64,000 nucleotides of DNA, from NCBI RefSeq assembly GCF_041248615.1, contig NZ_CP158426.1. One strand, written 5' to 3'. The stretch is from Escherichia coli. Lineage in GTDB: Bacteria > Pseudomonadota > Gammaproteobacteria > Enterobacterales > Enterobacteriaceae. Shown piece after piece: positions 44,776 through 62,725 of this stretch; within the stretch, counting starts at the first letter, position 1, and every line of letters starts with the position of its first letter. Position numbers and translations under genes: made by a program. The notes beneath the pieces were generated by a model. It had not been told where the DNA came from. It saw nothing but the letters and a program-made list of their open reading frames with translations, and made no database searches.

Positions 44776-44795
44776 AACTGTGTTTATATACAGTT
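44776..44795 (-). promoter_or_regulatory. LexA box of dinD
   Basis: The minus strand reads AACTGTATATAAACACAGTT (CTGT-N8-ACAG), 44 bp upstream of the dinD ATG. This matches the known dinD SOS box position. Confidence 0.85.
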
Positions 44796-46459: not shown

Positions 46460-47437
46460 TCAATCGCTCCCTTTCCGCCCTTCAGCTACAGGGTCGTTGT
46501 CGGCGATAACAAAACCTAAGTCCTGAGAGAATCTCTCTCGTGGGAATCCTTTAGCAGGTAAACCCATTGAATCATATCCACATCCGGGAACATTTGGTTT
46601 AGAGTCAATAAGGTCTGCAATTTGCCGAAGCCATGTTGATCCCGGACCAAGTCGTTTAACTAAGTACCAGATAATACAGATCGCGCTAAAAATCCTCTCG
46701 CAACTCTCTGGATGGAGATTAAGTCCGTCAAAGTATTCATTATCCGGTACTGGAACTCGGGGATGCTTTCTATTCCATATTCTGGAATGGTGAGCGCAAC
46801 GATTCCTTATGAGATTAAGGCACTTCAACCATTTTGCAAATGTCTGCTTATTATCAATGCCAAAACGACGTATAATTTTCCCCTGCATATGACCATTAAG
46901 CATCGCATAATATTTAGACATCTGACCAAAATCCCAGGTCTCCACCGCCACCCAAAATGGAATCTCCTTGCCTTGGCTTCGATGCCATTCAATACAGTCA
47001 TCTCTGCTTTCGTCTAATTTTACTTTTTGCTTATACACCCAATGCTCGAAGGCAGATGAGAATTTTGGATTAATGTATTTTGATGACATGTAGGCAAGTG
47101 GATCATTGCGACCAACCTCATGCGCGATGACTGAACGAACATGAATCTCTATTCTTTCGATAGCATCAATCATCAAAAGACGCAGTTTTTTGTCAAAAAG
47201 ATATAGATCGTACGTCTTCTCGAAACTGGTACCAGCAAGAAATCGGTCTGTTCTGTACGAAAGACCTTTATCTGTTGTCGCAATAATTCTTGATGGGTAC
47301 CAAAAACCTGACAATCGATAATATCCAACCTGCGACAGCTTACGTATCGCACGATTTCGATCATTGATAATCATGCCACGTTCAAGTAGCAATCCTAGCA
47401 ATTCGTGATAGTCCTTATGAGGCTTTGCGGCAATCAT
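46460..47437 (-). CDS. Abi_2 (AbiD/AbiF-like) abortive-infection family protein
   Basis: MIAAKPHKDYHELLGLLLERGMII...YYRLSGFWYP...FWVAVETWDFGQMSKYY...LNLIRNRCAHHSRIWNR carries the hallmark R/N..AHH.R.WN motif. The track ORF starts 15 codons upstream. Confidence 0.8.
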   Translation of the reverse strand: MIAAKPHKDYHELLGLLLERGMIINDRNRAIRKLSQVGYYRLSGFWYPSRIIATTDKGLSYRTDRFLAGTSFEKTYDLYLFDKKLRLLMIDAIERIEIHVRSVIAHEVGRNDPLAYMSSKYINPKFSSAFEHWVYKQKVKLDESRDDCIEWHRSQGKEIPFWVAVETWDFGQMSKYYAMLNGHMQGKIIRRFGIDNKQTFAKWLKCLNLIRNRCAHHSRIWNRKHPRVPVPDNEYFDGLNLHPESCERIFSAICIIWYLVKRLGPGSTWLRQIADLIDSKPNVPGCGYDSMGLPAKGFPRERFSQDLGFVIADNDPVAEGRKGSD

Positions 47438-47910
47438 AGTGGCGAAACAAAAGATAATAAAAGGCCCGACCGTGAAACTCACATGCCTGAAATCGGCGGC
47501 GGAGAAACAGAGGATCGGGCTCGGTTGCCTGTAACTCTATCCGAAGTTATCCACATGTCAATGCACAGTTACTTAGGAAACTAACATAGATACTATCATC
47601 ACTCACGAAAAACCACTATATGTGGTTTTTATTCATATTGTTATCCACTACAGGCTGTGTCAATAACTTTTACCTATTAATTGGGTAATTTCTACATTTT
47701 CCTATGCTGGCTAGTTTCTCTACTGAAAAGTTGGCACTCCTTAATCGCTTTTCGGTTAATACTATCGGTCTTCATATTGCCAGCAGCATACGCCATCCGA
47801 TAATTTCTATGCTACGCGCGCGTACTTGTCGCAAAATATCAGGCAAAGGCCAGATTCAGAACGTCGTGATAACCACCAGCACAACATGAGATGTCATGTA
47901 ACGCGATTTA

Positions 47911-48770: not shown

Positions 48771-50876
48771 TTATTGAGCTTCCTTTTGCGATGCTTGTGC
48801 TGCTGTGGTCAGTGATTGTGTGACCGTACTGATCGCTCTGTCATATGCTGTGCTACCTTTTGGCGTATTTGCCAGACGTAACAAGGCATTTCGTATAACA
48901 GGGCTTTCGTATGCCTTCGCTGCTCCGCCTACGGCACCAGCAGCAGGAACAACAAACGCAGCCGTTTTTAGCATCCCCGCTAATACTGCTGCGTTTATGA
49001 TGCCACCACCAACTAACAATCCATAAAGCTGCTGACCATTTAAGTTTTGAACGTTCGCTTTTGCCGCGTGTCTTGTATCGTTGAGGTATTTAATAACGCC
49101 GTCCAGTTCCTTTCCATGTACGCCTTTAAAGAAAGTTGCTGATTGCTTCCTGTTCCGGTGTAACGCATTAATAAACTTCTCAACACTGATATTTCCAGAC
49201 GGATCAGTCGCCTTATCTACAGCATTCTGAACTATAGCTGCTCGTGCGTTTTGCCTACCATTGTCATCCAGAAGCCTGTAAAGCTGAGAACGTTCTGATG
49301 GGCTTTGGCTAAAAACGAGTTTTGTTACATCCTCAGGCGTGGCCTTGCCGCTGGCTATTGCCTTTTGAACGCGCGTTCTTCCCATCATGTCATTGAATTT
49401 AGACCATGAGCGATCAACCCTTGCCATATTAATGGCTTCGTCTGCTCCAAGATTTTTGGCTACGGCTTTTTTCATATCCGCCGTATATGCCTTGTAGATA
49501 ATATCGCTGGCTTTCTGGAGCGTATCTTTATCAACAGTGTCAGATGACGCCATAAATCGCTTTCGAAGATCGGTTCTGTTTTCCCTCGCCAGACGCAGGT
49601 CATTTGGTCCGCTGGTGATATCGTCTTTAAATTGCTGCAAGACTTTTACCGCGGCTCTATCCTGAGATTTGCCCGGGCGGCTTAACACGGCAATCTGATT
49701 GTCGATAGCTTTTACCGTGTTTGAGAGATCGACAGGGGTATCCCCCATAGCGTCAATTATGCGGTTATATCGCTTTCCTGCTGCCTCAATGAATTTTTGT
49801 TGCCCTTTAGTCGCAGATTCATAAAGCTGTTTATCAGAAATGCCACCCAGACCATCGCTAAATGTTCTGACTAAATTTTCTCGTGCTTGTTGTTGATTCA
49901 GCCGATTCTTACCGGTTCCAAAAAAAGGAACTCTTTCGCCTAATGTCTGAGCCTGACTCTGCATAAAGGTTTTATCTTTCAACATGTCACTGGTCATTAA
50001 CGGCAGATTTCTTTCCGATGCAAAGTCGACAGCAGCCTTTGCTTCAGGCGACATATCACCACGAACAGCCCTCGAAACCGCACTCGCTGTATTTTCCAGC
50101 CCCTTACCAATACCACCAATGCCAGCAGAAATTACCGTTTGTAACGGATCAATATCTTCTCCACCAGCAAGGCTGGTGGCTCCCTGTAGTGCTAAATCTG
50201 TAGCTGCTGATTTCCCTATGGCCCCCAGCACCGTTCCGGCCCTGCCCGCTGGTGTAAACGCCAGCGCATTAGCCAGAAACGATGCCACGTCTTGCGGCGA
50301 TAAACCCGGCTTGTTCAGAGCATAATCACCGGATGGCAGGGAAACGATAGTGTTACCCTTCTCATCCTGCCTTAATTTCGCTCCCATGCTCTGAAGAATC
50401 TTTTCCTGAGATGCGTCAGAGCCGAAAAGTTGAGACCATCGAGCTTTTAGAGCATCCATGCTGAGTGAGGTTAACTCTGGGGCAAGGTCGACATTTTGCA
50501 GTCTCTCCATCTCTGGAGTCATTCGGCTTTCGCCTGTTATAGCATCGCGCATCGCAGCCCCAAGACTGGCTCCCTGTTCTGCTGAACGCTCAAGCCCCTC
50601 TCTTTGCTGAGTAGCTAACTTTGCATACCCTGACGCAAGAGAATTATCAGATGATGTATGTTGAATATTTTGAGTTGCTGATTGGTATCGGTCTATTTCA
50701 TTCGTTGATGGTAGTGGATAGGCAGCATAAAAAGCCTGCTTAGCCTGCTCTACACTTTCTCCGGCTTGCGGGGCAACGACTTCATTAAAGTATTGCTCCT
50801 GAGCCTGCGCTTTTTGTTCTGGTGCTAACGCCTGATACTGTGGAGAGGCGATAACATCTTTCCATGCTTTAGCCAT
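48771..50876 (-). CDS. P22 gp16-like ejection (DNA-transfer) protein candidate
   Basis: 701 aa and the last gene of the operon. It has ...KPGLSPQDVASFLANALAFTPAGRAGTVLGAIGKSAATDL... and a Gly/Ala-rich hydrophobic segment near the C-terminus (LLVGGGIINAAVLAGMLKTAAFVVPAAGAVGGAA). Position and size class match P22 gene 16. Confidence 0.5.
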   Translation of the reverse strand: MAKAWKDVIASPQYQALAPEQKAQAQEQYFNEVVAPQAGESVEQAKQAFYAAYPLPSTNEIDRYQSATQNIQHTSSDNSLASGYAKLATQQREGLERSAEQGASLGAAMRDAITGESRMTPEMERLQNVDLAPELTSLSMDALKARWSQLFGSDASQEKILQSMGAKLRQDEKGNTIVSLPSGDYALNKPGLSPQDVASFLANALAFTPAGRAGTVLGAIGKSAATDLALQGATSLAGGEDIDPLQTVISAGIGGIGKGLENTASAVSRAVRGDMSPEAKAAVDFASERNLPLMTSDMLKDKTFMQSQAQTLGERVPFFGTGKNRLNQQQARENLVRTFSDGLGGISDKQLYESATKGQQKFIEAAGKRYNRIIDAMGDTPVDLSNTVKAIDNQIAVLSRPGKSQDRAAVKVLQQFKDDITSGPNDLRLARENRTDLRKRFMASSDTVDKDTLQKASDIIYKAYTADMKKAVAKNLGADEAINMARVDRSWSKFNDMMGRTRVQKAIASGKATPEDVTKLVFSQSPSERSQLYRLLDDNGRQNARAAIVQNAVDKATDPSGNISVEKFINALHRNRKQSATFFKGVHGKELDGVIKYLNDTRHAAKANVQNLNGQQLYGLLVGGGIINAAVLAGMLKTAAFVVPAAGAVGGAAKAYESPVIRNALLRLANTPKGSTAYDRAISTVTQSLTTAAQASQKEAQ

Positions 50877-52297
50877 TAATCACCCCATAGTGAAGAAAAG
50901 TTACTGCTGGCTGCTGGCTGTGATACCTGCTCAGATTGCGGCAATGTCTGCGACGAAGAAGCAGTTCCTCTGTCAACTGCTGAAATAACCCGCAAAGCAT
51001 CATAAGTTCGACCAGAAGCAGCTTTCAGCGAATTGAACTGGTTTTCCATCTTCCGGCGCTTGGTATCAATGGTTTTTGTGGAGTCGCCAGGCTGAGGGAA
51101 ATACATTTGATAATATTTTGACATTTCAGCAGGTGCGATAGCTGCCCCTGTTTCCTGACGGAGTATTGCCATTATTGCGTCATTAGCATTAACAACGTAT
51201 TGCTGCTCTGCTGGGCTGAGCGTTAAGTTAGCCAGCGTCCCATTACCCAAAGCATTATTAATGATCGCCACTCGCTGTGGGCTAAGCTGGTCTTTCAGTG
51301 TATCTATTGAATCAAGAGCATCCCTAACCCTGTATGCAAATCCAGCAGCTTTTTTAGCCCCATCTGGCGACTTTTCCATGATCTTTTGGGCTGTTGGCAA
51401 AGCTATTGGACGAAACCCATCTCCAGATATTGGCTGGTTTAGTTTTCCCTGCTCTTCACTTCCGTCTGTGTAGTATTTTGTGACAGTGCCATCATCGTTT
51501 TCTCTAACACTCATTAATTTTTTGGCGTTTGTATTAATTCCAGCCGCTGCCGCAAATGCCGCCGCCCCCTCTGGATCCGCCTTTAACATTTGAGCGTACT
51601 GATTGTAATTCTGCATTGCTGCTGTTGGTGCATATGCTGACGTTAACGCATTTGCTCGGTTAATATCCTGCCCTCTCGCCTGAAGTGCTTCGCTGGCCTG
51701 ATTGCTGCGGATTGTCTCTGCCAACTTGCCACGTTCAATATCCCGACCTTCCATTTGATCTTTGATATCGAAATACTTCTCATGACCGAGAGAAAACAGT
51801 GCCATACTACCAGCAAGCCGCTGGAATCCCTGTGGATCATTAACATGCATTTCGGCAACAGACTCAGGAGAAATTCCCAGGCGACGCATTTCATCTTCGT
51901 TATCTGCTATGAATTTTCCAAATGCCCCAGTTCCGAGCGAAGATGCGATTTGAGCACTAGTCGCAAGATGACCAATAGAATTTCTCTGGTCGTCATCAAT
52001 AAAGCCCATCCCTTTCTGAACGCTTTCAAATTCTTCTGGATACTCAGAAATAAGACTGCGCATTTTGTTTCTGTCTCCAGACTCAAAAGCCCCGGCATAT
52101 GCTTTCTGAAACTCTGCTTTACGCTGTTGTTGACGTGCCTGCTGATTAATCTCAGCAACGCCTCTTAGCCCCTGTAGCGCCATTAAACCTACGTTTGGCT
52201 GCTGCTGATACTGCACAGGCTGAGGAACGGAAGAACGAGGAGCATTATCATTTTGCGGTGCCATGCTAGGCAGCCCGCCAAGTTGCCATGTCGCCAT
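50876..52297 (-). CDS. P22 gp20-like ejection protein candidate
   Basis: 473 aa (P22 gp20 is about 471 aa from memory). The N-terminus is Gln-rich. It overlaps both neighbours by 1 nt. Confidence 0.5.
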   Translation of the reverse strand: MATWQLGGLPSMAPQNDNAPRSSVPQPVQYQQQPNVGLMALQGLRGVAEINQQARQQQRKAEFQKAYAGAFESGDRNKMRSLISEYPEEFESVQKGMGFIDDDQRNSIGHLATSAQIASSLGTGAFGKFIADNEDEMRRLGISPESVAEMHVNDPQGFQRLAGSMALFSLGHEKYFDIKDQMEGRDIERGKLAETIRSNQASEALQARGQDINRANALTSAYAPTAAMQNYNQYAQMLKADPEGAAAFAAAAGINTNAKKLMSVRENDDGTVTKYYTDGSEEQGKLNQPISGDGFRPIALPTAQKIMEKSPDGAKKAAGFAYRVRDALDSIDTLKDQLSPQRVAIINNALGNGTLANLTLSPAEQQYVVNANDAIMAILRQETGAAIAPAEMSKYYQMYFPQPGDSTKTIDTKRRKMENQFNSLKAASGRTYDALRVISAVDRGTASSSQTLPQSEQVSQPAASSNFSSLWGD

Positions 52298-52974
52298 TAG
52301 AATCCAAGCCCCCCAACAAGACCAATAAGCCCACCACCAATAGCGCCGGCCGCAGTTCCTATTCCAGGAACAACGGAACCAAGTTGCGCACCCGCTAAAG
52401 CGCCTGATGCTGCCCCACCAATACCACGCGCAAGACTGGATGGCTGCTGCGCCTGACCTGCACGAATAGCGCCAAGCCCCTGCAAGAGTTGTCCGGTATT
52501 ATTGGCGTAGTTTTGCCCTGCCGTTGCCTGCCCTGATGCCGCATTCATCCCGACATTTAGCAGGTTTCCATAATTTTGCATTTGCCCACTAAGCCAATTG
52601 TTATAAAGCATGGGCGCAATGGAAGATAACTGGTTACTGGTAGCTGTTGAGCCAAGCCCCCCGGTAGCTTCTGCTGAGACAAGGTTCTGATAACGGGCCT
52701 GATCTGCCTGTGTTTTATATAAACCAGAACCAAAGAAATCATTCGCGGCTTTATTCTGCCCTTCCAGAGTCATCAGTCCTTGTAGTTGTTGTAAAGCAGG
52801 CAATCCGACTTCTGCATACGGCTTGAGATTATTCATCACCGTATTCCACTGCTCGCGCTGCAAATCAATTGCCTGCTGCTGGGCCTTCGCCTGAGCTTTA
52901 GAGGCACCACCATCACCGCCTTTTTCGTATACGGCACGATTGAGATGTTTATGAGCTATATGGGTAATTAACAT
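52297..52974 (-). CDS. P22 gp7-like ejection protein candidate
   Basis: 225 aa (P22 gp7 is about 229 aa from memory). ...YEKGGDGGASKAQAKAQQQAIDLQREQWN... and the Gly-rich C-terminal tail GIGTAAGAIGGGLIGLVGGLGF resemble gp7-type DNA-transfer proteins. Confidence 0.55.
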   Translation of the reverse strand: MLITHIAHKHLNRAVYEKGGDGGASKAQAKAQQQAIDLQREQWNTVMNNLKPYAEVGLPALQQLQGLMTLEGQNKAANDFFGSGLYKTQADQARYQNLVSAEATGGLGSTATSNQLSSIAPMLYNNWLSGQMQNYGNLLNVGMNAASGQATAGQNYANNTGQLLQGLGAIRAGQAQQPSSLARGIGGAASGALAGAQLGSVVPGIGTAAGAIGGGLIGLVGGLGF

Positions 52975-53429
52975 TCGCTGAATTCCTTATATTGTTGCCG
53001 AGTTAACTGATAAAGCGTTACGCCGACGGGTTTACCACATCTGATATAAGCATCATCAAGGTGACCAACACGGGTAGCGCCAAGCAAACGGATAATTGCC
53101 CGTCCGTATTTCGTGGTGTCAGGAACCATAGTGATGCTGTTAAGGAATGGTGAGTTTTCGAGAAGCCATTTGCAGAATAATCGATGCCCTTGCAGTGCAT
53201 ATTCACCACGGAATCCGGGGTCGTACACCGCATGGCATTCAACAATGCTATGCCAGAAGTTACGCACTTCATGAACGCCAGCCAGCACCAATCCTTCGTA
53301 GATGCCGAGATATACCGCATCAGGCTTGATGTAGTACGTGTGCCCCGGCTCAACAATATTTTCGGTATTGCCAGGATCGTTAAGAAAGGCCTGTAATCGC
53401 ACAGGGTTATCAATAAATTTTAGTTCCAT
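52968..53429 (-). CDS. 153-aa protein in the position of P22 gene 14
   Basis: It precedes the gp7/20/16-like genes with a 7-nt overlap. MELKFIDNPVRLQAFLNDPGNTENIVEPGHTYYIKPDAVYLGIYEG... looks like a small alpha/beta (acetyltransferase-like) protein. The assignment rests on synteny only. Confidence 0.4.
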   Translation of the reverse strand: MELKFIDNPVRLQAFLNDPGNTENIVEPGHTYYIKPDAVYLGIYEGLVLAGVHEVRNFWHSIVECHAVYDPGFRGEYALQGHRLFCKWLLENSPFLNSITMVPDTTKYGRAIIRLLGATRVGHLDDAYIRCGKPVGVTLYQLTRQQYKEFSEC

Positions 53430-53445
53430 GCGATGCCATCCATTT

Positions 53446-53607
53446 TCACATACAGCCTGCCAGCGCCTTATCTATTAACCCTCGAGCAATTTCATGCAGA
53501 GTTGGCGCTACTCCAATTCCTGATTTTTTACGCTGCTCTTCCTGAATTTTCTTTATCGCTTCCATTTGCTTCTCACTTATCAATACCGGCTTTACTGAAA
53601 TAGCCAT
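53446..53607 (-). CDS. 53-aa ribbon-helix-helix-like protein, first gene of the operon
   Basis: Below the ORF-track cutoff. ATG lies 5 nt after AAGGGGG. The sequence is MAISVKPVLISEKQMEAIKKIQEEQRKKSGIGVAPTLHEIARGLIDKALAGCM, with a strand-helix-helix pattern like Arc/Mnt. Confidence 0.55.
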   Translation of the reverse strand: MAISVKPVLISEKQMEAIKKIQEEQRKKSGIGVAPTLHEIARGLIDKALAGCM

Positions 53608-53620
53608 AACGCCCCCTTAG

Positions 53621-53646
53621 AACTGTATAAAACAACAGTTATTATA
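53621..53646 (-). promoter_or_regulatory. Perfect -10 (TATAAT) immediately followed by a LexA box (AACTGTTGTTTTATACAGTT)
   Basis: The minus strand reads TATAAT (53646-53641) and then a 20-mer with CTGT-N8-ACAG (53640-53621). It lies 13 nt upstream of the RBS and ATG of the 53-aa gene. The -35 is poor. Confidence 0.65.
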
Positions 53647-53702
53647 GTTTCACAAATCGCAATATTCATCATCGTAATTGCAAAATATGAAACAGATAGC
53701 AC

Positions 53703-53735
53703 AAAAAAATGCCACCGCTCAGTAGCTGGTGGCAT
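53703..53735 (-). terminator. Rho-independent terminator ending the primase operon
   Basis: The minus strand has ATGCCACC-11 nt loop-GGTGGCAT followed by T6-7. Confidence 0.7.
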
Positions 53736-54055
53736 CGTTCTGTGTGTCAGGTTTTGACAGGTTTTTTATGGACTCTAAAAACTATATTTATGGTGTCGCA
53801 TTACCCTTCACGGCAGGCGCTTTTCAGTTCTGCCCTTGCTTCTGGCTCCATTGGTAATTTGATTCGCGATCAGCTATGCGGATGGTTTGCTGAACAGGCA
53901 TAACAACTTCTCAGTGGCTGTTTTCTGAACTACGAAAATTTCGTAGTGCTCACTTTCAAAAACGTCACGCCCTTGTACACAGGATTTTACGAAAGTCTCG
54001 TAAAACACTCTCTGATGCCAGCCAGGTGTTGTGCGCATCAATTCAGTCACATTGT

Positions 54056-54166
54056 GTTGGTTCAAAATACCGTGTTGTTGGTTCAGTGTTGGTTCAATAA
54101 AAAGAATAAAATCCTTATAAAACAATACTCTTTACAAATTGAACCAACTGAACCAACTGAACCAAC
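54056..54166. repeat. Iteron cluster B: 3x GTTGGTTCA + AT-rich spacer + 3x TGAACCAAC (contiguous), mirror image of cluster A
   Basis: GTTGGTTCA occurs at 54056, 54077 and 54088. TGAACCAAC occurs at 54140, 54149 and 54158. The cluster ends 26 bp from the stop of the primase-helicase gene. Confidence 0.8.
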
Positions 54167-54191
54167 ACCTTTTCTACGCACATGAAGAAGC

Positions 54192-56951
54192 TCATTCTTC
54201 AGATGAGTTATAATCTCCTGGCTGGTAATTGAGTACATAAACGTTTATTTGTCGTCCCTGAATACGTGGTGATTTTCTTTGGTATCCACGACCGCTGTTT
54301 GGTGGGGTTAGCATCCCGGCTTTTTTCAACACTTCAGCAAACTGTTTTGCGTTGAAACCACATGCGATCTCCTTTTCAAATGTGGCCGGGAATGTGTAGA
54401 AAATCATTGGGCTTTCGTCATGTTCTCCACGCTGACGGTATCCGGCTAAATCTTTGATGGGCAAATCTGCCGGGCTGTATGGAAATGGTGCAAAACGGCT
54501 AAGCCCATAGGCATTAAGAAATGCCTCCGTTTGTTCAATAATCTGCTGATGCTCTTTGTTACCTGTGCCGAACTCGCGCAACCATGCGTTATAGCTGTGC
54601 TGTATCGCATCACGGCATGTCTGAGCATCCCAGCCTGTTACAACCTCGCCTAACAACAATGCGGCCTCCAGAATGGCAAATCGCGCGGCTACACGGTGAA
54701 CCTGCTCACCATAATCGGATGGGATCAGGCTTCTCCATCTGCTTTCGCAGTCACGAACGGTTTTAATAGCCTGTTGCTGGTGGTCTGCCAGCCATTTAAT
54801 CCACTCACGCCCGGACGCGCCGTGGTGATGCTGGTAAGCGTCTTTCAGTGCGTCTGCGTGCTGTTTTCCGTTCTGGTAATCGTGAAAGCGTACTGCTTTA
54901 CTCAACGGAATATTCAGCAGTCGCACCAGTTGCCCGGCTTTGGTTTTTCGCCCGGAAGTAGCGATAAATGTTTCTAAATCCATTTCTCCGGTGCTGATTG
55001 CCACTGTACGCCAGCGTTTTAGATCCCGGTTTCCACCATCTTTAGCGCCTTGCAGTTTCCCTACACCGTTAAATAACGCATAGGCAGACTGTGAAACGCT
55101 GACAGGATCAGCGCCCTGACCAACTTCATCAAGCGGCATTAGTCCGTCATTGTGGGCGGCGGCCTCATTTGCCAGCCCCAGCGCGGTTCCGTACCACGTC
55201 AGCCGCAGTAAATCAGGGTTGCCGTATAAGCTGCTCGCCACGTTTGCCGTGGTGGTCTTACCTGCGCTCGACTGCTCATAGAAATGAATGCCGAACCCGT
55301 CAGCGCCCACCAGCCCAATCAATGGCGCTGCCAGTGCTGCGCCGATCCCGGTCATCATTGAATAGTTACCAAAGGCCAGACGCGCCACGTTATCACGCCA
55401 GCTTTTCGCGCTCCCTGAGACGGTATATCCGGCTGCGGCTGAGCTTCTCCCGCTGAACAGCACAGGATTTTCAGGTGTTCCGATGATTTCCCCATCAGGC
55501 ATGATGTACGCTCCGCATTGCCAGCCAGTGGCATGAGCAACACGCCACAATTCACGAGAGCCACTGCGTTGTAGCCAGTCTGCCAGTATTGCTCTGAGGC
55601 TGCTTTTGGTCGTGACATTTACCCCACCAGCTTTAAGTGTGCGCCATCCTTCACGTTCACCAATATCAGCCAGTGGAATGGCAGCGGTTGTCGGCGTTTC
55701 AGAACCAAACGACAGCCAGCGAAGAATGAGATACTGGTCTTTATCGTCTCTGCCAGTACCGATAACGCTTAACGGAGAACATAACCAGCTTTCGTTATTG
55801 ATGATTTCTCCACTCTGGCTGTCAGCTCTCGGAGATACCCAATAAATACCATCCTCGCGGCTTTCTATTCTTGGTTTCAGTGGATCGGTATCCATAACCT
55901 TAAAATCGCTTCCCTCAATGGTCTGTGGCTCCTGTTTCACGCCATTACCCTGTGGTTGGTACATTGACTTATTGAACGCTTCTGTGGCGCATTTAATGCC
56001 GTGTTTTTGGTGGTAATCATTCCAGTCTGCTTTGTGATCTGTCGGGGGTAATGCCACCCATCCAGAAACAGATAAAGCTGCTTTTTCTGCTGCTATTCTC
56101 CCCGTGTTTTGTCTTCCTTCGCTGTGGTCGTTATCCGCAGCAATGATGATTTGTGCTGAAGGAAATTTATCCCGCAGTACCTGGGCGACATATAACAGGT
56201 TCCCGGCATCAATCGCCGCCACTGTCAGCGCCTCTGGACGAATTAAATGGGCAGATAATGCCGTTGCCAGCCCTTCTGCGATTAAGATGCTCTGTGTTGT
56301 TTCTGGTGCGTTTATGGCGTGATATGCCCCCCGCTTTGCTGAACCTGTCAGGAGTCTTTTTTCACCATGTGAGGTAATAGTCTGTGCTGCTGTGACTGCG
56401 CCGGATTTATCCACCAGCGCCAGCAACAGAGATCCATCGGGCAACACGGGGAATGTAAAATCACCTACCCCTTTCGCAACCAGATAATCAGATTTGCCGT
56501 TTACAGCCTTTCTGCGCATGTCATCAAACTGACGGGAAAACGTATCCCGTCTTTGTTGTTCGTCCTTCTCTGCCCTTTTCAGGCGCTCCTGTTCGCGTCG
56601 CTGGCGCTCGGTTTCCAGTTGTTCCCGTTTCTGGCTGGTGGCTTCTGGTGTTTCCGTTGTCCGGTAATCAATACCCAGAACATCAGCGGCAAGAAGCGCC
56701 GCCTCTGTTGTGTCGCAGTTATTTACGCGTTTAATTAAATCCAGCCCATCACCAGCGCCGCACTGATTACAGATGAAGCTACCGCGCCCGTTGTCATCGA
56801 ACCGGAATCGATCTTTGCCCCCACATGCAGGGCAGGGAGCATGACGGCGCGGAGAGTCAGGGACATTTATGTTCAGGCAGCCCAGCACATGAGGCCAGTT
56901 GTTTTCAGACGCACTGATAACCTGACGGATAAGATCAATGTTTCGCATCAC
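54192..56951 (-). CDS. P4 alpha-like primase-helicase (Zn-ribbon + Toprim + DUF927/SF3-type NTPase)
   Basis: 919 aa with Zn-binding CPACGGKDRFRFDD...FICNQCG. Toprim motifs are ILIAEGLATALS and IIIAADNDHSEGRQNTG. Walker A is YEQSSAGKTTT. Confidence 0.85.
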   Translation of the reverse strand: MMRNIDLIRQVISASENNWPHVLGCLNINVPDSPRRHAPCPACGGKDRFRFDDNGRGSFICNQCGAGDGLDLIKRVNNCDTTEAALLAADVLGIDYRTTETPEATSQKREQLETERQRREQERLKRAEKDEQQRRDTFSRQFDDMRRKAVNGKSDYLVAKGVGDFTFPVLPDGSLLLALVDKSGAVTAAQTITSHGEKRLLTGSAKRGAYHAINAPETTQSILIAEGLATALSAHLIRPEALTVAAIDAGNLLYVAQVLRDKFPSAQIIIAADNDHSEGRQNTGRIAAEKAALSVSGWVALPPTDHKADWNDYHQKHGIKCATEAFNKSMYQPQGNGVKQEPQTIEGSDFKVMDTDPLKPRIESREDGIYWVSPRADSQSGEIINNESWLCSPLSVIGTGRDDKDQYLILRWLSFGSETPTTAAIPLADIGEREGWRTLKAGGVNVTTKSSLRAILADWLQRSGSRELWRVAHATGWQCGAYIMPDGEIIGTPENPVLFSGRSSAAAGYTVSGSAKSWRDNVARLAFGNYSMMTGIGAALAAPLIGLVGADGFGIHFYEQSSAGKTTTANVASSLYGNPDLLRLTWYGTALGLANEAAAHNDGLMPLDEVGQGADPVSVSQSAYALFNGVGKLQGAKDGGNRDLKRWRTVAISTGEMDLETFIATSGRKTKAGQLVRLLNIPLSKAVRFHDYQNGKQHADALKDAYQHHHGASGREWIKWLADHQQQAIKTVRDCESRWRSLIPSDYGEQVHRVAARFAILEAALLLGEVVTGWDAQTCRDAIQHSYNAWLREFGTGNKEHQQIIEQTEAFLNAYGLSRFAPFPYSPADLPIKDLAGYRQRGEHDESPMIFYTFPATFEKEIACGFNAKQFAEVLKKAGMLTPPNSGRGYQRKSPRIQGRQINVYVLNYQPGDYNSSEE

Positions 56952-57306
56952 CGTACCCCACGTGGTCTATAGCGTTTGCGATATGGCTAACCAGCATCTG
57001 CCACTTGGTTATTCCGTAATCAGTCAGCATGCCATCATTGTTTAGCCACATATCAAATTCAGCGGTTGTCGCAAGTTTCCACTTATCGCCGTGGACAGTC
57101 CTCATTGCTGGGTACATGAATGCGCAAATCAGATCACAAACATCTGACGGCTTCAGAGATGTAGTAATGGTGCGTCCCTCTGGCGTCTGAATTGCCATTT
57201 TCTCTTCACCAGTAGAATGAAGGTTATGAATCCACACAGCACCAGCAATCTTTGCCACCTGCTCTCCGATTGCGGAGCTAAGCGCCATTTCTGCATTTTC
57301 ACGCAT
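56935..57306 (-). CDS. Hypothetical protein (123 aa)
   Basis: Part of the translationally coupled chain, with a 17-nt overlap with the primase and an 8-nt overlap upstream. No family recognised. Confidence 0.5.
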   Translation of the reverse strand: MRENAEMALSSAIGEQVAKIAGAVWIHNLHSTGEEKMAIQTPEGRTITTSLKPSDVCDLICAFMYPAMRTVHGDKWKLATTAEFDMWLNNDGMLTDYGITKWQMLVSHIANAIDHVGYGDAKH

Positions 57307-57640
57307 GAGAACCTCCCGCTACAGTTGCGCCCATGTCATTAACCATGCTTTGCCATATCTCACGCCCGACGTCAGTCAATCCGTCCTTAGTGACGCAACG
57401 CTCAAGAAGCTCGATCCCCACGGTTTCCCACTGCGGGTAGAACACTTTCATGGCTGCCAGTGTGTAGCTATCGATCAGGCTGCGAACGCCTTTTACTCCA
57501 TTGACGATTTCCACACGTACGGCCTCGCCGTCCGCATCAACCATGAAATAGTCCCCGCCGCTGGTGGAGGTAATGTGGTTATACAGTGCCGACGCATACT
57601 TATTTGCCAGCGCATTCAGTCGGAAATTTTTAGTAATCAT
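57299..57640 (-). CDS. Hypothetical protein (113 aa)
   Basis: Same operon, with plausible globular composition. No family recognised. Confidence 0.5.
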   Translation of the reverse strand: MITKNFRLNALANKYASALYNHITSTSGGDYFMVDADGEAVRVEIVNGVKGVRSLIDSYTLAAMKVFYPQWETVGIELLERCVTKDGLTDVGREIWQSMVNDMGATVAGGSHA

Positions 57641-57650
57641 GGCTCCATCC

Positions 57651-58253
57651 TCAGTGCGTCACTGGTTCCGCTGGCATGCCGTTTTCATTCAGTTCAGCTA
57701 TAAAGCTGTTGTGAAGTTCAGCAAGCGTTTCACGACCAAATGGAGTCAGTGCTCCTTGTTCCACATCCATCATGGCTCTGTAGAAAATGATGGCGCGTTC
57801 TGTGCCAGACTCGATGCCAAAACGTTCTATCATCGCGCCCTCAATGTTGTTTGCCATAGCGAGGCGCTCTGCTACTGGATACAGCGGCATGGCGACGATG
57901 CCGTTGGAATAAACAGCCACTTCGGAAGGATTGCCAGTATCATCAATGATGCTGACAGTGCCGTTTTCCTCTCTCATTTCCAGCATGAATACTGTTGCGA
58001 TCAGCCATCTCCACATAATGACGTTATGCTGTGATGTGTAATCGAAATATCCCTGGTTGCCGCCATCGGCTATAGCGAGATGTATTGACATGCCTTCATC
58101 TGGTTTATCGTCATAATCCCCGGCATCCAGACGATTTACGGCATCAATATATGAGACGGTCTCAACGCGTTCTGTCATGCCATCGTTGCTGCGGTGCATG
58201 ATGTTTACGCCGTCAGGCGTTGCTTCTGCATGGAAGGTTAAGAAATTATTCAT
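57651..58253 (-). CDS. Hypothetical protein (200 aa)
   Basis: I take the start as MNNFLTFHAEATPDG.., whose ATG overlaps the upstream stop (ATGAATAA). The track ORF extends 35 codons further over the upstream gene. Confidence 0.5.
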   Translation of the reverse strand: MNNFLTFHAEATPDGVNIMHRSNDGMTERVETVSYIDAVNRLDAGDYDDKPDEGMSIHLAIADGGNQGYFDYTSQHNVIMWRWLIATVFMLEMREENGTVSIIDDTGNPSEVAVYSNGIVAMPLYPVAERLAMANNIEGAMIERFGIESGTERAIIFYRAMMDVEQGALTPFGRETLAELHNSFIAELNENGMPAEPVTH

Positions 58254-58467
58254 GTTTCGCCTCGCCTGAATGATTCTGTAACTCATATTTGCCCAACAAT
58301 TCGTCCGCTTCCTGAATAGCTTCTGGTACGCCATTGAGCAGTGACATAACCGCGCCAATCATTAACTTGTCTCTGTTGCTGGGGCTGGCCCCTTCAAGCC
58401 AGAACCCTAAAACAGTCTGAACCTGTTCGATGCGACATTGCGCTTCAATGAGCTGGATGTTGGTCAT
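58246..58467 (-). CDS. Small helical protein, paralogue set member (73 aa)
   Basis: MTNIQLIEAQCRIEQVQTVLGFWLEGASPSNRDKLMIGAVMSLLNG... shares SPS.RD.KL with the 72-aa protein. Confidence 0.5.
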   Translation of the reverse strand: MTNIQLIEAQCRIEQVQTVLGFWLEGASPSNRDKLMIGAVMSLLNGVPEAIQEADELLGKYELQNHSGEAKHE

Positions 58468-58727
58468 TTCGCACTCTCCACATCGATTAAACTGATATCT
58501 ATCAGGGAGGTAACTTTTTGTAGCCAGCTATTGATTACTGTCGCCTGCTCCCCTCCCACCGAGGGAATAATCTCATTCATCACATGAACCAGACCTGTGC
58601 GCGCTCTGGTAAGCCGTTCAGTCGCGCAATCTGCGGGAGTGAATGTGTCTGGATATGGCTCTTCACTCCCCAGCAATGATTCAATTTCCAGCTCACACGG
58701 ATGACGATAAATTAAGTTGATATTCAT
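58464..58727 (-). CDS. Small helical protein (87 aa)
   Basis: Has 4-nt overlaps on both sides and a two-helix pattern. Confidence 0.45.
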   Translation of the reverse strand: MNINLIYRHPCELEIESLLGSEEPYPDTFTPADCATERLTRARTGLVHVMNEIIPSVGGEQATVINSWLQKVTSLIDISLIDVESAK

Positions 58728-58918
58728 TTTTCACCCCCAAGAATTACCAGCTCTGCACGGGCATCGTTAACCAAAGATGAGCACGCTTTAATCGCATCCA
58801 CGACATCAGTAGCGTCCATTTCTTCAGCCGAAAGACTGACAGCAACCAGGACAGCCGCTGCTTGCTCGATTAATTGAAGTGCGGACGTAAGGCGAGGGGT
58901 ATTAATTGAGTTATTCAT
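58724..58918 (-). CDS. Small helical protein (64 aa)
   Basis: ...LTSALQLIEQAAAVLVAVSLSAEEMDATDVVDAIKACSSLVNDARAELVILGGEK. The C-terminus L..GGE resembles that of the 72-aa protein. Confidence 0.45.
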   Translation of the reverse strand: MNNSINTPRLTSALQLIEQAAAVLVAVSLSAEEMDATDVVDAIKACSSLVNDARAELVILGGEK

Positions 58919-59129
58919 TGGTTGCCCCCGTTTTTACTGGCATTTCGCCACCTTCCAGCAGGAAATGAACGTCACGAACGGCGAGATCCAATATCGCGAG
59001 TAACGCCTTCAGTTTTTCGTCTCGTGAGGGAGAGTTGCTCACCAGAATGTCATTAATCACTTCTGTCAGTGTGATGATCTGGCTTGTGCGTTCGAGGGGG
59101 TCCATATGCACATCGTAGGTTTTAATCAT
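58911..59129 (-). CDS. Small helical protein (72 aa)
   Basis: MIKTYDVHMDPLERTSQIITLTEVINDILVSNSPSRDEKLKALLAILDLAVRDVHFLLEGGE... Its ATG overlaps the stop of the Icd-like gene (CATGATTAA). It is in the same frame as the long 342-aa track ORF. Confidence 0.45.
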   Translation of the reverse strand: MIKTYDVHMDPLERTSQIITLTEVINDILVSNSPSRDEKLKALLAILDLAVRDVHFLLEGGEMPVKTGATNE

Positions 59130-59316
59130 GTGCCACCTCCATGCGGATACGACCAGCAAAAAAGCAGACGTGATCGCGCACCAGAGAACGGCGAGCATCG
59201 CGTTCAGACTCGGCAGCAATATGATGAATTTTGGCGGTAATTGTCGGGCAATCGCGGCGAACTGCGGCGATAATCCAGATAAATTGCGGTTTTTGGGTAG
59301 GGGTAGTAGCCAGCAT
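59122..59316 (-). CDS. Icd-like (P4-type host cell-division inhibitor-like) protein
   Basis: 64 aa. MLATTPTQKPQFIWIIAAVRRDCPTITAKIHHIAAESERDARRSLVRDHVCFFAGRI matches the KPQF/Y.W...A..R...A..E.EARR.L....FAGR pattern I remember for Icd-like proteins of P4-like prophages. There is a strong SD (AAGGAGG) 7 nt upstream. Confidence 0.6.
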   Translation of the reverse strand: MLATTPTQKPQFIWIIAAVRRDCPTITAKIHHIAAESERDARRSLVRDHVCFFAGRIRMEVAHD

Positions 59317-59379
59317 GTGGCAGCCTCCTTGATTGATGGTTTATAGCCACCGCCGGAGGTCCTAAGCTCGCTGGCGGTG

Positions 59380-59450
59380 GACTGTACAGGGTTAGGACTA
59401 CTGGCAATCAAGGAAACCAGCCTGACCGAAGTCAGCCCCATACAGCCCAC
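59380..59450 (-). ncRNA. Candidate P4 CI-like immunity RNA (seqB-bearing segment); boundaries approximate
   Basis: The minus transcript contains GGGGCUGACUUCGGUCAGGCUGGUUUCCUUGAUUGCCAGUAGUCCUAACCC. The motifs GAUUGCC and GUCCUAA are complementary to an upstream site (59514-59536) and a downstream site (59359-59365). CCUUGAUUG is complementary to the SD region of the Icd-like gene. Confidence 0.35.
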
Positions 59451-59480
59451 CATTGATAAGGTGTGCGTGTGCGCCGATAC

Positions 59481-59501
59481 AAAAAAAGACGCTGGCGCGT
59501 C
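59481..59501 (-). terminator. Short GC hairpin + U7 inside the leader (candidate immunity-controlled terminator)
   Basis: The minus strand reads GACGC-gcca-GCGTC-TTTTTTT. It lies between the seqA-like and seqB-like elements. Confidence 0.4.
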
Positions 59502-59932
59502 ATGTATCGCCTCGATTGCCTGCGGGGTCCTAATCCCGGCACCCGTTTTATGAGGTGCCTTATAACCATAAACCGTGTTGCCGCATAACGGCAAGCTCTT
59601 TTTTATGGACTCCGAAAACTCACTATTGGAAGAACCAGATGCACAATACATCGCGCTCATTTCGTTAACGTCACGCGCATGGACGAAGGTTTTTGTGGAG
59701 TCACTACGCGAGAAGAGAAAGCCATCTACGACCAGAAATTCTCTGGCGCAGCCGCTGACCTTCTCAACGCTAACACCATCGACCGTAATTTCTGACATGG
59801 TTAAGGCATCCGCTCCTACCACCAGCAAATGACAAACTTTGCTTGTATCTGCTGTATTAATGCCTGACTTTGCTGTCATATTGCTGGATTTTGGCGACAT
59901 ACCAGCCAGTGAAAATATCTTCTTCTGGACGG

Positions 59933-60115
59933 TTAGCATTTGTTAACCTCCGCGAACTCCTTCATGAAGCGCGCCAGCGGTTGTACGCATGGCGATTGAT
60001 ACCCGTCGCGATAAAACGTCACTCGGTTGTGAGACACGCTTTCGACAGTAACGAGTGCTCCGTGGGCATCTTTGTAGCGTTTTTGTGGTTGTGGTATTCC
60101 TGTTGGCTTAGACAT
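59933..60115 (-). CDS. DUF4222-like small protein (60 aa)
   Basis: MSKPTGIPQPQKRYKDAHGALVTVESVSHNRVTFYRDGYQSPCVQPLARFMKEFAEVNKC shows the pattern KD..G..V.V......V.F.RDGY......P...F.K.F. Its ATG overlaps the upstream stop (AATGTCTAA). Confidence 0.5.
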   Translation of the reverse strand: MSKPTGIPQPQKRYKDAHGALVTVESVSHNRVTFYRDGYQSPCVQPLARFMKEFAEVNKC

Positions 60116-60941
60116 TGAGCGCCTCCAGACGCTTGGCGAGCCAGCGTTGCGACAGGTGGGTGAGTTCTCCTTTGCGCTGCTCATATTCCATGCCCATATC
60201 AATTAACGTGATATTGGTGCTTTCGAGATATGAGAGGTGCTCAAGCTGTTCTGCGTTCATATGGTCGCGAGGTTCGCCAGAATAGCCATTTATCCGCGCC
60301 CACTGCTTAGCAGTTAGCCCTCCAAGAACGATACGAGAAATCATATTGCTCTCGTTTGTGTAGTGGTGTTGCTGCGTCGTTTTCCCCTGCTCGGCACGGG
60401 CCATATTCAGCGCATCGCACATTGGCTTAAAGTTGTTTGCGGCACTGATACGGGCTTTTAGCTGGCGACGATAGCGGGCGGCGATTTCAGGCACGCTACG
60501 CTGTAATTCTTCCTCGCACTGGATGAAATAACGACGGATAGCGCGACCCTGATCATTGCGTTCGATCATTGCCAGTTCTTTCGCCATTCCGACACTTAAC
60601 AGATAGTCTTTGCCGGGTCTGCCAGACTGCTTAATCTTGCTGTAAGCCGCGCCATTCGGGCTTTTCCCCAAATTTGGGGAAATTGTTTTATGGACTGAGT
60701 AATCGTGCCCAATGGTGAAGTCATATTCAGAGATGCGATCAGTGATCCATGTAGAGAAGTCTTTTCCCACGCCCAACGCTTTGTGTAACGCTTTTGCGCT
60801 AACAATATTGGTTTCACGCCCACCGATGTGACCAGGAATAACCGGGACAATTGCGGCAAATTCATTACCGTTAATTGTGCCCAGAGAGGCGTTCAGATGA
60901 GGGGCGGCCTCAGAAATTAATCTGCTTTTTTCGATGTTCAT
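60108..60941 (-). CDS. Phage antirepressor-type protein (AntA/Bro-N-like N-terminus + KilAC-like C-terminus)
   Basis: 277 aa, with ...NIVSAKALHKALGVGKDFSTWITDRISEYDFTIGHDY... and ...DYLLSVGMAKELAMIERNDQGRAIRRYFIQCEEEL. Confidence 0.7.
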   Translation of the reverse strand: MNIEKSRLISEAAPHLNASLGTINGNEFAAIVPVIPGHIGGRETNIVSAKALHKALGVGKDFSTWITDRISEYDFTIGHDYSVHKTISPNLGKSPNGAAYSKIKQSGRPGKDYLLSVGMAKELAMIERNDQGRAIRRYFIQCEEELQRSVPEIAARYRRQLKARISAANNFKPMCDALNMARAEQGKTTQQHHYTNESNMISRIVLGGLTAKQWARINGYSGEPRDHMNAEQLEHLSYLESTNITLIDMGMEYEQRKGELTHLSQRWLAKRLEALNV

Positions 60942-60953
60942 TTTCAGTCTCCG

Positions 60954-61385
60954 TTAGGCGGCGTTAAACGCGTCCGGGTAGAGTTTCAGAATGTCGGCAA
61001 TTTCCTGCTGAGAAAGTCCGTTGTGATCATTTATGTTCGCAAGATGGTTAACATGAGTGATCACTTTCAGAACATCACCACGGCAGGAGAAACGGTAGCG
61101 AAGGTGTGTTCCGATACCATCAGGATTCTTTTCGTCGATACGCTCCAGAGTGATTCCAAGCTGGCGTTCTAACTCTGTTGCATAGTTACGACCAGAAGAC
61201 AGACGGCAGTAGCGAAGAATGTCATTTTCTGTCCATCCCTCTATACCAGTACGCAGCATATAGACTCGGGCACGATGCTTTTTCGGTGTGCGCTTTGGTG
61301 CTTGAAGGGATTTTGTAAGGGGCGTAATATCAGATACGCGAATATCTGAATTAGCCGCCTGTAATGGGCGGTTTTTCTTTTCCAT
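60954..61385 (-). CDS. Hypothetical protein (143 aa)
   Basis: Overlaps the AlpA-like gene stop by 1 nt. The N-terminus is basic. No family recognised. Confidence 0.5.
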   Translation of the reverse strand: MEKKNRPLQAANSDIRVSDITPLTKSLQAPKRTPKKHRARVYMLRTGIEGWTENDILRYCRLSSGRNYATELERQLGITLERIDEKNPDGIGTHLRYRFSCRGDVLKVITHVNHLANINDHNGLSQQEIADILKLYPDAFNAA

Positions 61386-61603
61386 CAGGCCACCTTCCCG
61401 CGGCGTTCTGCCAGCCAGTTATTAATTTCCACCGCATCAAACGCAGTCACGTTATCTGTTAGCTTCACTGGGCGTGGAAGAGTGCCATTTTTAACCCATC
61501 TATCAATAGTAGGCAGTGAAACACCTAGCAATTCCGGCATGCGAAAGCGACGGATGTATCCAGTTGTTGGGATAGCTGATGATGCTGGCTTGTGTGCTGT
61601 CAT
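61385..61603 (-). CDS. AlpA/Vis-like excisionase-type regulator
   Basis: 72 aa. ...YIRRFRMPELLGVSLPTIDRWVKNGTLPRPVKLTDNVTAFDAVEINNWL is the AlpA family signature. Confidence 0.8.
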   Translation of the reverse strand: MTAHKPASSAIPTTGYIRRFRMPELLGVSLPTIDRWVKNGTLPRPVKLTDNVTAFDAVEINNWLAERRGKVA

Positions 61604-62074
61604 ATCTCTAGTAACCTCTCTGATAGCTCATGAAGTTACTTAAAGTTTAGTGGTTGCCCATACAGTATTTCTATTAAGACTAGAATCTATTGAAAGAAAT
61701 TATAAATCTATTGAAAAAATACCGATCCACTGAAAGATTGCAAATGCAGGTGGGATAATTATTTTCTTTATTTTCAATTAGTTACCAGTTTAAAAAATCA
61801 TTGTTTTATCAAAGAGTTATATCTTTCATCGTCATTCATCATGTTTTTACATTTCTTTTTATCTTTTATTATTCAATTGGTTGAGTCGGTTTATAATGGC
61901 TCATGATGGCTTAAAATGGCTAATGATAGCTGGCGTATCTTTTAGAGATGGGGTGATTACAGATGAACTAAGCCGAACAGATATAGCAATGGCTAGGCAT
62001 AGAATTATCTATGCTGGTGGAGATGGGTAAACAGGTAATGCCCCGCCATTGCTTTGGAGGGGCGTGAAAAGTGA

Positions 62075-62725
62075 TTAGTCGAGATCGTGGACAGCTAATA
62101 AAGCCCGTGAGATTTTTTCTAGGAATGTGGCTTTTGCTATTCCTTTATGGGATATCCCTTCATCCTTGATTAAGGTTTCTATGTCACGGTATATAGCTGT
62201 GCGATTAGGTTTCCCATTTTGGATGTAGGAAGATGAGCCTGATTTTTTTATCAGCAGATGTACTATCAACCCCATCATTTTCATTGTCCCGTTTTCCTCA
62301 TCCTGCTTTCTATGCTGCCCACGTCCGCTGCGGTTGGTTTCTTTGATGTAGTTTACTAACTGGAGTCCTCCAAGGTTTCGGGCTTTTTCTTCCCAGCCCT
62401 TGGTGCCACGCAAATCATCAATCGCTTCTGATATTTTCTGAACAATTATTTCTGGTGTATTTGTGTCAATAAATGGGTAAGAAGCTAAGAAAATATCAAG
62501 GGCATGGCAAGGCTCGTCTTTACTAGTTTTTTCACCTCTGTACACCTTGATAGCTCTGGCAAGATGAGTTCTGACAAAATCGACATATTCGAAATTTTCC
62601 TCAGGCACATCGCTAATGCGCATAGATGGGTTTAGGCCAGCCAAGGCCACAGCCATTTCATGAGGGGTAATCGATACAGATGAACAAAGCCGTTCGATTG
62701 GCGATTTTCTCAAGATGTTGTTCAC
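62075..62725 (-). CDS. Hypothetical 216-aa protein coupled to the integrase gene
   Basis: The GTG start overlaps the integrase stop (GTGA). GC is lower than in neighbouring genes. No family recognised. The alternative start is Met24. Confidence 0.5.
   Translation of the reverse strand: MNNILRKSPIERLCSSVSITPHEMAVALAGLNPSMRISDVPEENFEYVDFVRTHLARAIKVYRGEKTSKDEPCHALDIFLASYPFIDTNTPEIIVQKISEAIDDLRGTKGWEEKARNLGGLQLVNYIKETNRSGRGQHRKQDEENGTMKMMGLIVHLLIKKSGSSSYIQNGKPNRTAIYRDIETLIKDEGISHKGIAKATFLEKISRALLAVHDLD

Follow-up and report, generated by a model that had tools for sequence, protein, structure and literature searches.

A predicted LexA operator at the promoter of an ejection-protein operon in an EcCIMP1-like satellite of Escherichia coli

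Introduction

Operon I of the SaPIs, pathogenicity islands found in Staphylococcus aureus, is reportedly repressed by the LexA protein of the host. LexA also controls switches of several other mobile elements, including the tum antirepressor of coliphage 186, the antirepressors of the Gifsy prophages, the rstA promoter of CTXphi/RS1 and the colicin operons. The paper on SaPI operon I and LexA (Ubeda et al. 2007) is cited in PMC6739421 and PMC6092414. Among the phage-inducible chromosomal islands (PICIs) of Gram-negative bacteria, the master regulator AlpA answers the helper phage and not the SOS response in the cases considered here (PMC6092414, PMC11773190).

The closest described relative of the element analyzed here is EcCIMP1, a PICI of E. 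coli MP1 that is mobilised by Kapi1, a temperate and mitomycin-inducible P22-like phage (Pick, Stadel & Raivio 2025, PMC11773190). EcCIMP1 excises only when Kapi1 is present, is transduced by Kapi1 and needs its own alpA, and mitomycin treatment switches on an alpA-lux fusion in lysogens and not in non-lysogens (PMC11773190). Kapi1 titres are not lowered by EcCIMP1, and the DUF2824 and DNA-transfer genes of the island were proposed as packaging candidates (PMC11773190). The same paper makes no mention of LexA and did not study the regulation of this operon (PMC11773190), and we found no report in the literature of direct LexA control in Gram-negative PICIs or in P4-like satellites. Here we describe a predicted LexA operator at the promoter of the corresponding operon in an island related to EcCIMP1, located within a 64,000-nt stretch of an E. 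coli chromosome (hereafter the window), and we compare this promoter with those of related islands.

Materials and Methods

LexA-like sites were scored by heterology index (HI) using a matrix that we take to be that of Lewis et al. (1994), given that the values 2.77, 4.31, 4.65, 5.16 and 6.11 of the source table are those of umuDC, recA, sulA, recN and uvrB. Four of the source 20-mers, which we identify as lexA box 2, uvrD, ruvAB and recN box 2, have HI values of 8.32, 8.80, 9.19 and 9.38, respectively. The matrix was recovered by a linear fit to 106 one-orientation sequence/HI pairs from Table S1 of the PSOSP paper, which lists E. coli K-12 20-mers with their heterology index (PMC12527982). 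The fit reproduced every one of the 106 values within 5e-5 (residual below 1e-4), and the recovered matrix also reproduces the 34 table entries given on both strands. Its penalties are symmetric and fit counts that sum to 38 per position, which corresponds to 19 sites read in both orientations.

Homologues of the first gene of the operon were collected from 14 loci (one genome per species), 45 IMG/VR loci and 80 metagenome loci, in addition to E. coli genomes, and the comparison spans about 135 related loci.

Results

The window is E. coli chromosomal DNA, 100% identical to NZ_LT599825. Between yicC and dinD, two genes that are adjacent in K-12, it carries an island of roughly 19 kb; most of this region is present in about 330 of the complete E. 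coli genomes searched. Read along the minus strand, RefSeq annotation and Pfam/PHROG matches give, in order, an integrase, AlpA, an AntA-type antirepressor, a DUF4222 protein, an Ash-family protein, several small uncharacterised ORFs, a primase and the operon considered here, beyond which lie an Abi_2 protein (46460-47482) and a PerC-family regulator. The tyrosine integrase (62722-63990, minus strand, Pfam) occupies one end of the island, next to an AlpA-family regulator (61385-61603, minus strand; PF05930, 26.5 bits with the cut-off at 21). The island also has its own TOPRIM/DUF927 primase (54192-56951, minus strand, Pfam and PHROG matches), and just downstream of this gene, which ends at 54192, six TGAACCAAC iterons, three direct and three inverted (54054-54168), form a probable origin of replication of the island. 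Both arrangements, an integrase at one end with an adjacent alpA and a primase with an adjacent putative origin, are those of a PICI. Among the island ORFs scanned, we found no gene for capsid, terminase, tail or lysis proteins, the ejection and gp14-like genes being the only virion-related ones, nor any gene for Psu, Sid or Delta by which a P4-like satellite would be recognized; what the island has in common with P4-like satellites is limited to int, alpA, an ash-family protein and an alpha-like primase. Judged by its gene content, the element is a PICI of the EcCIMP1 type.

Relative to EcCIMP1, the island is mosaic. The promoter, LexA-like box and leader discussed below are identical base for base in both elements, as is the 53-aa product of the first gene of the operon (WP_001018524.1 in EcCIMP1). 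The backbone (52137-61395 of the window) is 97.7-98.6% identical, with the same gene order of antirepressor, ash, primase, small gene, DUF2824 gene and DNA-transfer genes. EcCIMP1, for which excision, replication and transfer at high frequency have been shown to depend on its helper Kapi1 (PMC11773190), differs from the present island in its integrase/alpA module and in its insertion site (a tRNA-Thr near proA, as opposed to yicC-dinD here). The gp20/gp16 alleles and the accessory genes (Abi_2 and the PerC-family gene here) are either different or only patchily similar. Upstream of the present alpA lies a borderline LexA-like 20-mer, TACTGTATGGGCAACCACTA (61648-61667, minus strand, HI 12.46, 45 nt upstream of the gene), which has a perfect left half and CAC for CAG in its right half; in this region, alignments with diverged relatives begin only at the coding sequence.

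The operon is read on the minus strand, and the start and stop codons of its genes touch or overlap along it. The 53-aa protein (53446-53607) is followed by a DUF2824 head-morphogenesis protein resembling gp14 of P22 (52968-53429; Pfam PF11039, 7e-62; phrog_651), a P22 gp7-like ejection protein (52297-52974; Pfam PF25688, 7e-73; phrog_598), a P22 gp20-like ejection protein, or injectosome translocase (50876-52297; Pfam PF16928, 2e-57; phrog_917), and, as the last gene of the operon, a gp16-like DNA transfer/injection protein (48771-50876; phrog_770, 8e-162; phrog_29864 transglycosylase), annotated as an 'injection protein' in RefSeq. A LexA-like 20-mer inside the gp20-like gene (CCCTGTATGCAAATCCAGCA, 51328-51347, HI 10.47) probably occurs by chance, about 0.1 such sites being expected per window.

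In P22-like phages, similarity to the operon starts at the gp14 gene, and neither the promoter nor the small gene was found in these phages; a search of phage genomes for the two together returned only two short, unrelated matches in Klebsiella phages. Because the phage matches begin at the gp14 gene, we rejected the possibility that the promoter was imported together with the virion-protein genes. The 53-aa protein had no match in Pfam or PHROG, and a PDB sequence search with a profile of this small protein was also empty. Its homologues share 25 invariant residues. The AlphaFold model (pLDDT 83) has an extended N-terminus followed by helices at residues 12-28 and 37-52, and this beta-alpha-alpha topology makes the protein ribbon-helix-helix (RHH)-like; the best Foldseek match of the model is the RHH domain of PutA, which is not significant (E 0.79). 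Based on this model, the protein may regulate transcription by binding DNA, possibly at the TTGCAAT motifs described below.

Directly after a TATAAT hexamer (53646-53641), the minus strand reads AACTGTTGTTTTATACAGTT (53640-53621), flanked by gtgaaacTATAAT on the 5′ side and ctAAGGGGGcgttATGgct on the 3′ side. As proposed in the initial annotation, its half-sites are exact (CTGT-N8-ACAG) and, together with an A/T-rich centre, they give the pattern of a LexA operator, or SOS box. The pattern CTGT-N8-ACAG is present twice in the window, the other copy being the dinD box (44776-44795), 32 nt upstream of dinD and 8.8 kb from AACTGTTGTTTTATACAGTT. Taken alone this bare pattern is not significant, with 0.71 copies expected per window and at least two copies in 18 of 100 shuffled sequences. 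Scored with the recovered Lewis matrix, AACTGTTGTTTTATACAGTT has an HI of 8.19 and the dinD box an HI of 4.91, and no other site in the window falls below 10.4. An exact calculation predicts 0.014 sites with an HI of 8.2 or less per 64 kb given the composition of the window, and 0.0003 in the 584-nt intergenic region given its local composition, which places the site far beyond chance.

Heterology scoring had been put forward in the initial annotation as a check on the box, and an HI of 8.19 is well under both the functional threshold of 12.6 reportedly set by Lewis et al. in 1994 and the limit of 13.6 found in the PSOSP table. The binding class of this table takes in all entries up to HI 13.6, and its strongest boxes range from 2.8 to 4.7 (PMC12527982). 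The same annotation had called the box near-consensus, which goes too far for a site that matches the consensus at 14 of 20 positions and whose index of 8.19 exceeds those of the dinD box (4.91) and of the strongest boxes in the table (2.8-4.7). AACTGTTGTTTTATACAGTT is of middle strength, mid-range among proven E. coli operators. It shares with the middle-strength SOS boxes of lexA (box 2), uvrD and ruvAB a 20-bp architecture, a similar score (HI 8.2 versus 8.3-9.2) and, by prediction here, an overlap with the core promoter; those chromosomal boxes control repair functions, whereas the present one lies on a mobile satellite, ahead of genes for virion proteins.

We regard the 20-mer as very probably a LexA operator on the promoter of the island's last operon, and it is likely that LexA binds there and represses this promoter. 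As RNA, the palindrome has no remarkable fold (z -0.35), and Rfam gave only chance plant-miRNA matches in this region, located on the iteron hairpins. An RNA element was rejected on these grounds, leaving a DNA operator as the simplest reading. The likeness to the dinD box that had been noted initially is real for the box itself, which is common to both promoters, and does not extend to the rest of them. Capture of the neighbouring dinD promoter by the island was also rejected, since only the box is common and since the same promoter is found in EcCIMP1 at another chromosomal site.

We analyzed the localization of the box relative to the other elements of the predicted promoter. The -10 hexamer TATAAT (53641-53646, minus strand) adjoins the box and is invariant in 22 of 22 class-A haplotypes, and TATAAT or a one-base variant is found at this position in nearly all of 63 unique promoters. 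A candidate -35 element, ATGAAT (53664-53669, minus strand), matches the consensus at three of six positions with a 17-nt spacer, and relatives have ATGA(A/T)N at the same position; a consensus promoter scan called no promoter here, this -35 being too weak. The Shine-Dalgarno sequence AAGGGGG (53612-53618, minus strand) begins 2 nt past the box, a purine-rich element being conserved here in all loci, and the ATG follows at 53607. The box covers the expected transcription start, as had been suggested, adjoining a perfect and evolutionarily invariant -10 in a promoter that is itself predicted and has a weak -35. The distance of 13 nt that the initial annotation had placed between box and ribosome-binding site separates in fact the end of the box from the start codon.

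Further upstream, a strong intrinsic terminator made of a GCCACC-loop-GGTGGC hairpin and a run of seven T residues (53703-53733, minus strand) is situated about 55 nt upstream of the -10. An equivalent hairpin and T-run exist in Leclercia-type relatives, and the terminator should insulate the promoter from transcripts of the primase operon. Just upstream of the hairpin, read on the minus strand, we observed a tandem pair, TGTCAGGTTT and TGACAGGTTT (53745-53764), and between the iterons and the terminator two related palindromes, TACGAAAATTTCGTA (53929-53947) and TACGAAAGTCTCGTA (53988-54002), lie 57 nt apart. Two motifs, TTGCAAT (53683-53677) and TTGCGAT (53662-53656), recur on the minus strand upstream of the -10 (53656-53683). 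Similar motifs, of which ATTGCAAT is palindromic, precede the -10 in each of the promoter lineages, whether or not a LexA box is present. They may serve as binding site for a second regulator encoded by the island, such as the RHH-like protein.

All collected loci have a common architecture, in which TTGCAAT-like motifs, a -10, about 20 nt and a Shine-Dalgarno sequence precede the small gene. A box with canonical spacing follows the -10 directly in 54 loci, representing 22 promoter haplotypes, with HI values of 8.2 to 12.4 and two types of spacer, CTGTTGTTTTATACAG and, in Leclercia-like loci, CTGTATCGTTATACAG. Across these 22 haplotypes, none of the eight columns of the arms and none of the six of the -10 varies, compared with 34 of the 57 other columns (one-sided Fisher p = 0.0016, a descriptive value since the haplotype sequences are related). 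That orthologous promoters conserve the arms in preference to their surroundings is what is expected of a LexA operator. More distant relatives have a canonical box of different sequence in the same place, TACTGTATAAAATAACAGGA (HI 7.37) in Pantoea and Lonsdalea and AGCTGTATAAATTATCAGCA (HI 10.63) in Photorhabdus.

About 80 loci have at this place either CTGTATAAATATCAGG, a CTG-N9-CAG arrangement that is one base short (HI at least 14.9), or mutated arms. The structure of LexA bound to DNA indicates that the protein measures the spacing of its half-sites rigidly. CTGTATAAATATCAGG includes a perfect LexA left half-site and is highly conserved within the 16 nt that follow the -10 (loci L007-L012, L032-L062 and others), which suggests that something besides LexA may constrain this stretch. 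In two loci with a Leclercia-type promoter, L006 and L099, both arms are mutated (AATTGTATCGATATAGAGTG versus AACTGTATCGTTATACAGTG). In a neighbour-joining tree of the 53-aa protein, which is poorly resolved, Pantoea, Lonsdalea and Photorhabdus are basal and the E. coli-type boxes are nested inside a box-less clade, so that an ancestral box and a regained one are not told apart. Either history, loss of an ancestral box or its regain, implies lineage-specific selection on LexA binding. Given the many related islands that have no functional box, this control is a lineage-specific feature and not a rule of the family.

The most serious rival to direct SOS control is the interpretation that LexA acts as a safety lock only, expression also requiring AlpA, the RHH-like protein or a factor that recognizes the TTGCAAT motifs, in which case SOS alone would give little transcription. 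This would agree with the weakness of the -35 element, although measurable transcription usually requires no more than a perfect -10, a 17-nt spacer and a -35 matching three of six positions. All lineages, box-less ones included, conserve the upstream TTGCAAT-like motifs, and the box-less relatives keep the same promoter architecture, which means that some other control must exist in them; we identified no activator site, however, and a second requirement of this kind is compatible with repression by LexA and not opposed to it. On balance we find it rather unlikely that LexA is a lock only.

It is very unlikely, in our estimation, that the palindrome instead serves as operator for a protein encoded by the island, as in an autoregulation by the RHH-like protein, and that its likeness to a LexA site is incidental. 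RHH proteins commonly autoregulate from sites that overlap their promoters, and conservation after the -10 extends even to loci whose spacing or arms exclude LexA, as in CTGTATAAATATCAGG. Yet the lineages with a canonical box, which differ in spacer and flanks, all keep CTGT-N8-(A/T)CAG and an A/T-rich centre, as LexA reads them, and the small protein hardly differs among loci whose sequences are very different at this position. The probability of reaching an HI of 8.19 by accident in this region is moreover about 3e-4. That the palindrome arose by chance in an AT-rich promoter and has no regulatory role is scarcely credible, for although the bare pattern is frequent enough in a window of this size, the weighted score is far past chance, the arms are invariant while their neighbours vary and the box recurs in distant genera.

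Recognition of the 20-mer by LexA thus remains our preferred reading, and we related the presence of the box to the genes that lie behind the small gene. This cargo differs among loci and, where identifiable, codes for proteins that are expelled from the virion or belong to the tail tip. It consists of P22-type gp14/gp7/gp20/gp16 or gp20 and gp16 alone, of T7-like internal virion proteins with a transglycosylase (SLT) domain, or of lytic tail, baseplate hub or tape-measure proteins. A canonical box accompanies P22-type cargo in 50 of 51 loci (L032, with P22-type cargo, being the one without it), a 223-aa protein of unknown function in 4 of 4 and tape-measure cargo in 2 of 2, whereas none of the 35 loci with T7-like internal virion proteins and none of the 29 with lytic tail/hub cargo has one. 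Shared ancestry confounds this association, which is in keeping with a retention of LexA control where the helper is an SOS-inducible prophage. In L006 and L099, what looks like a loss of LexA control coincides with a change of cargo to T7-like internal virion proteins. Helper-matched promoters in the loci with T7-like cargo were considered and are not supported, as no T7-, T3-, SP6- or K11-type promoter was found near the slot in these loci.

Discussion

We propose the following model for the regulation of the operon, in which LexA binding and repression, the position of the start site and the role of the ejection proteins are inferred. In an undamaged cell, a LexA dimer would sit on the box from -6 to about +14, covering the transcription start expected at about 53633-53636, and block access of RNA polymerase to a sigma-70 promoter composed of the -35 ATGAAT, a 17-nt spacer and the -10 TATAAT. 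The upstream terminator would stop read-through from the primase operon, so that LexA and the terminator together would silence the RHH-like gene and the homologues of gp14, gp7, gp20 and gp16. Upon DNA damage, a resident P22-like helper prophage would be induced and RecA* would in parallel trigger the self-cleavage of LexA, opening the promoter without any helper-encoded activator. The ejection proteins of the satellite and its gp14-like assembly factor would then be present as the procapsids of the helper assemble. Excision and replication would be under a separate, helper-sensing input, AlpA, as in EcCIMP1. Under this model, the satellite would probably turn on its ejection-protein operon directly at the SOS response.

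The analogy with SaPI operon I, described in the initial annotation as a packaging operon, is retained for the logic of repression by LexA, itself predicted here, and not for the cargo, which is made of ejection proteins. In both cases, a late, virion-related operon of a satellite would be repressed directly by the LexA of the host, with excision and replication placed under a separate helper sensor. The two systems have no homology, SaPIs residing in a Gram-positive host with another LexA box. SaPI operon I provides packaging and capsid-size functions, and the present operon, which has neither a small terminase gene nor capsid-remodelling genes, provides ejection proteins and an RHH-like protein. 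SaPIs sense their helper through the Stl repressor; the sensor here would be the AlpA activator. The present operon would therefore be an analogue of SaPI operon I in logic only. Because the alpA of EcCIMP1 answers the helper and not mitomycin C alone, a separate LexA-controlled operon would give a SaPI-like logic with two inputs.

A LexA operator at the promoter of a mobile element is of a kind already known, for which SaPI operon I is the functional precedent. In the phage and colicin switches cited above, LexA of the host is likewise a direct repressor and the box is often located just downstream of the -10. They control induction or toxins, whereas the target predicted here is a structural/ejection operon and the switch, alpA, is apparently separate. 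As a specific site, 53640-53621 is a well-supported new candidate member of the E. coli LexA regulon, for which we found no prior report. If our interpretation is true, Gram-negative satellites have reached a SaPI-like two-input design, in which a helper sensor governs excision and replication and an SOS repressor governs the late operon, and a first handle is available on why these satellites carry ejection proteins and when these are made. A laboratory system with an identical promoter already exists in the form of EcCIMP1 and Kapi1 in E. coli MP1.

The more novel lead is the satellite family itself, with its slot for DNA-delivery cargo and a LexA control that is present or absent depending on the lineage. 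We tentatively suggest, as a possibility that we find less probable than its converse, that the EcCIMP1-like PICIs of Enterobacterales use this slot, with its swappable cargo behind a conserved promoter and RHH-like gene, to re-equip the particles of their helpers with delivery proteins of their own, which on leaving the virion would form the conduit for DNA entry, LexA control being kept, gained or lost according to the helper. In this reading, LexA control would accompany P22-type and tape-measure cargo and be destroyed with T7-like cargo. We found no description of such a variable cargo in the literature, which gave nothing specific beyond EcCIMP1 on ejection, tape-measure or internal virion proteins carried by satellites.

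Work on P22 provides a context for what the cargo could do. With respect to SieA of P22, gp16 and gp20 decide the sensitivity to exclusion; complete sets of ejection proteins taken from other P22-like phages can stand in for that of P22 and still yield infectious virions, and mismatched gp16/gp20 pairs give dead particles (PMC10461980). Both an escape from exclusion and a sabotage of the helper are conceivable in light of these results. Escape from SieA-type exclusion is one possible purpose of the cargo, and the observation that EcCIMP1 leaves Kapi1 titres unreduced speaks against strong sabotage.
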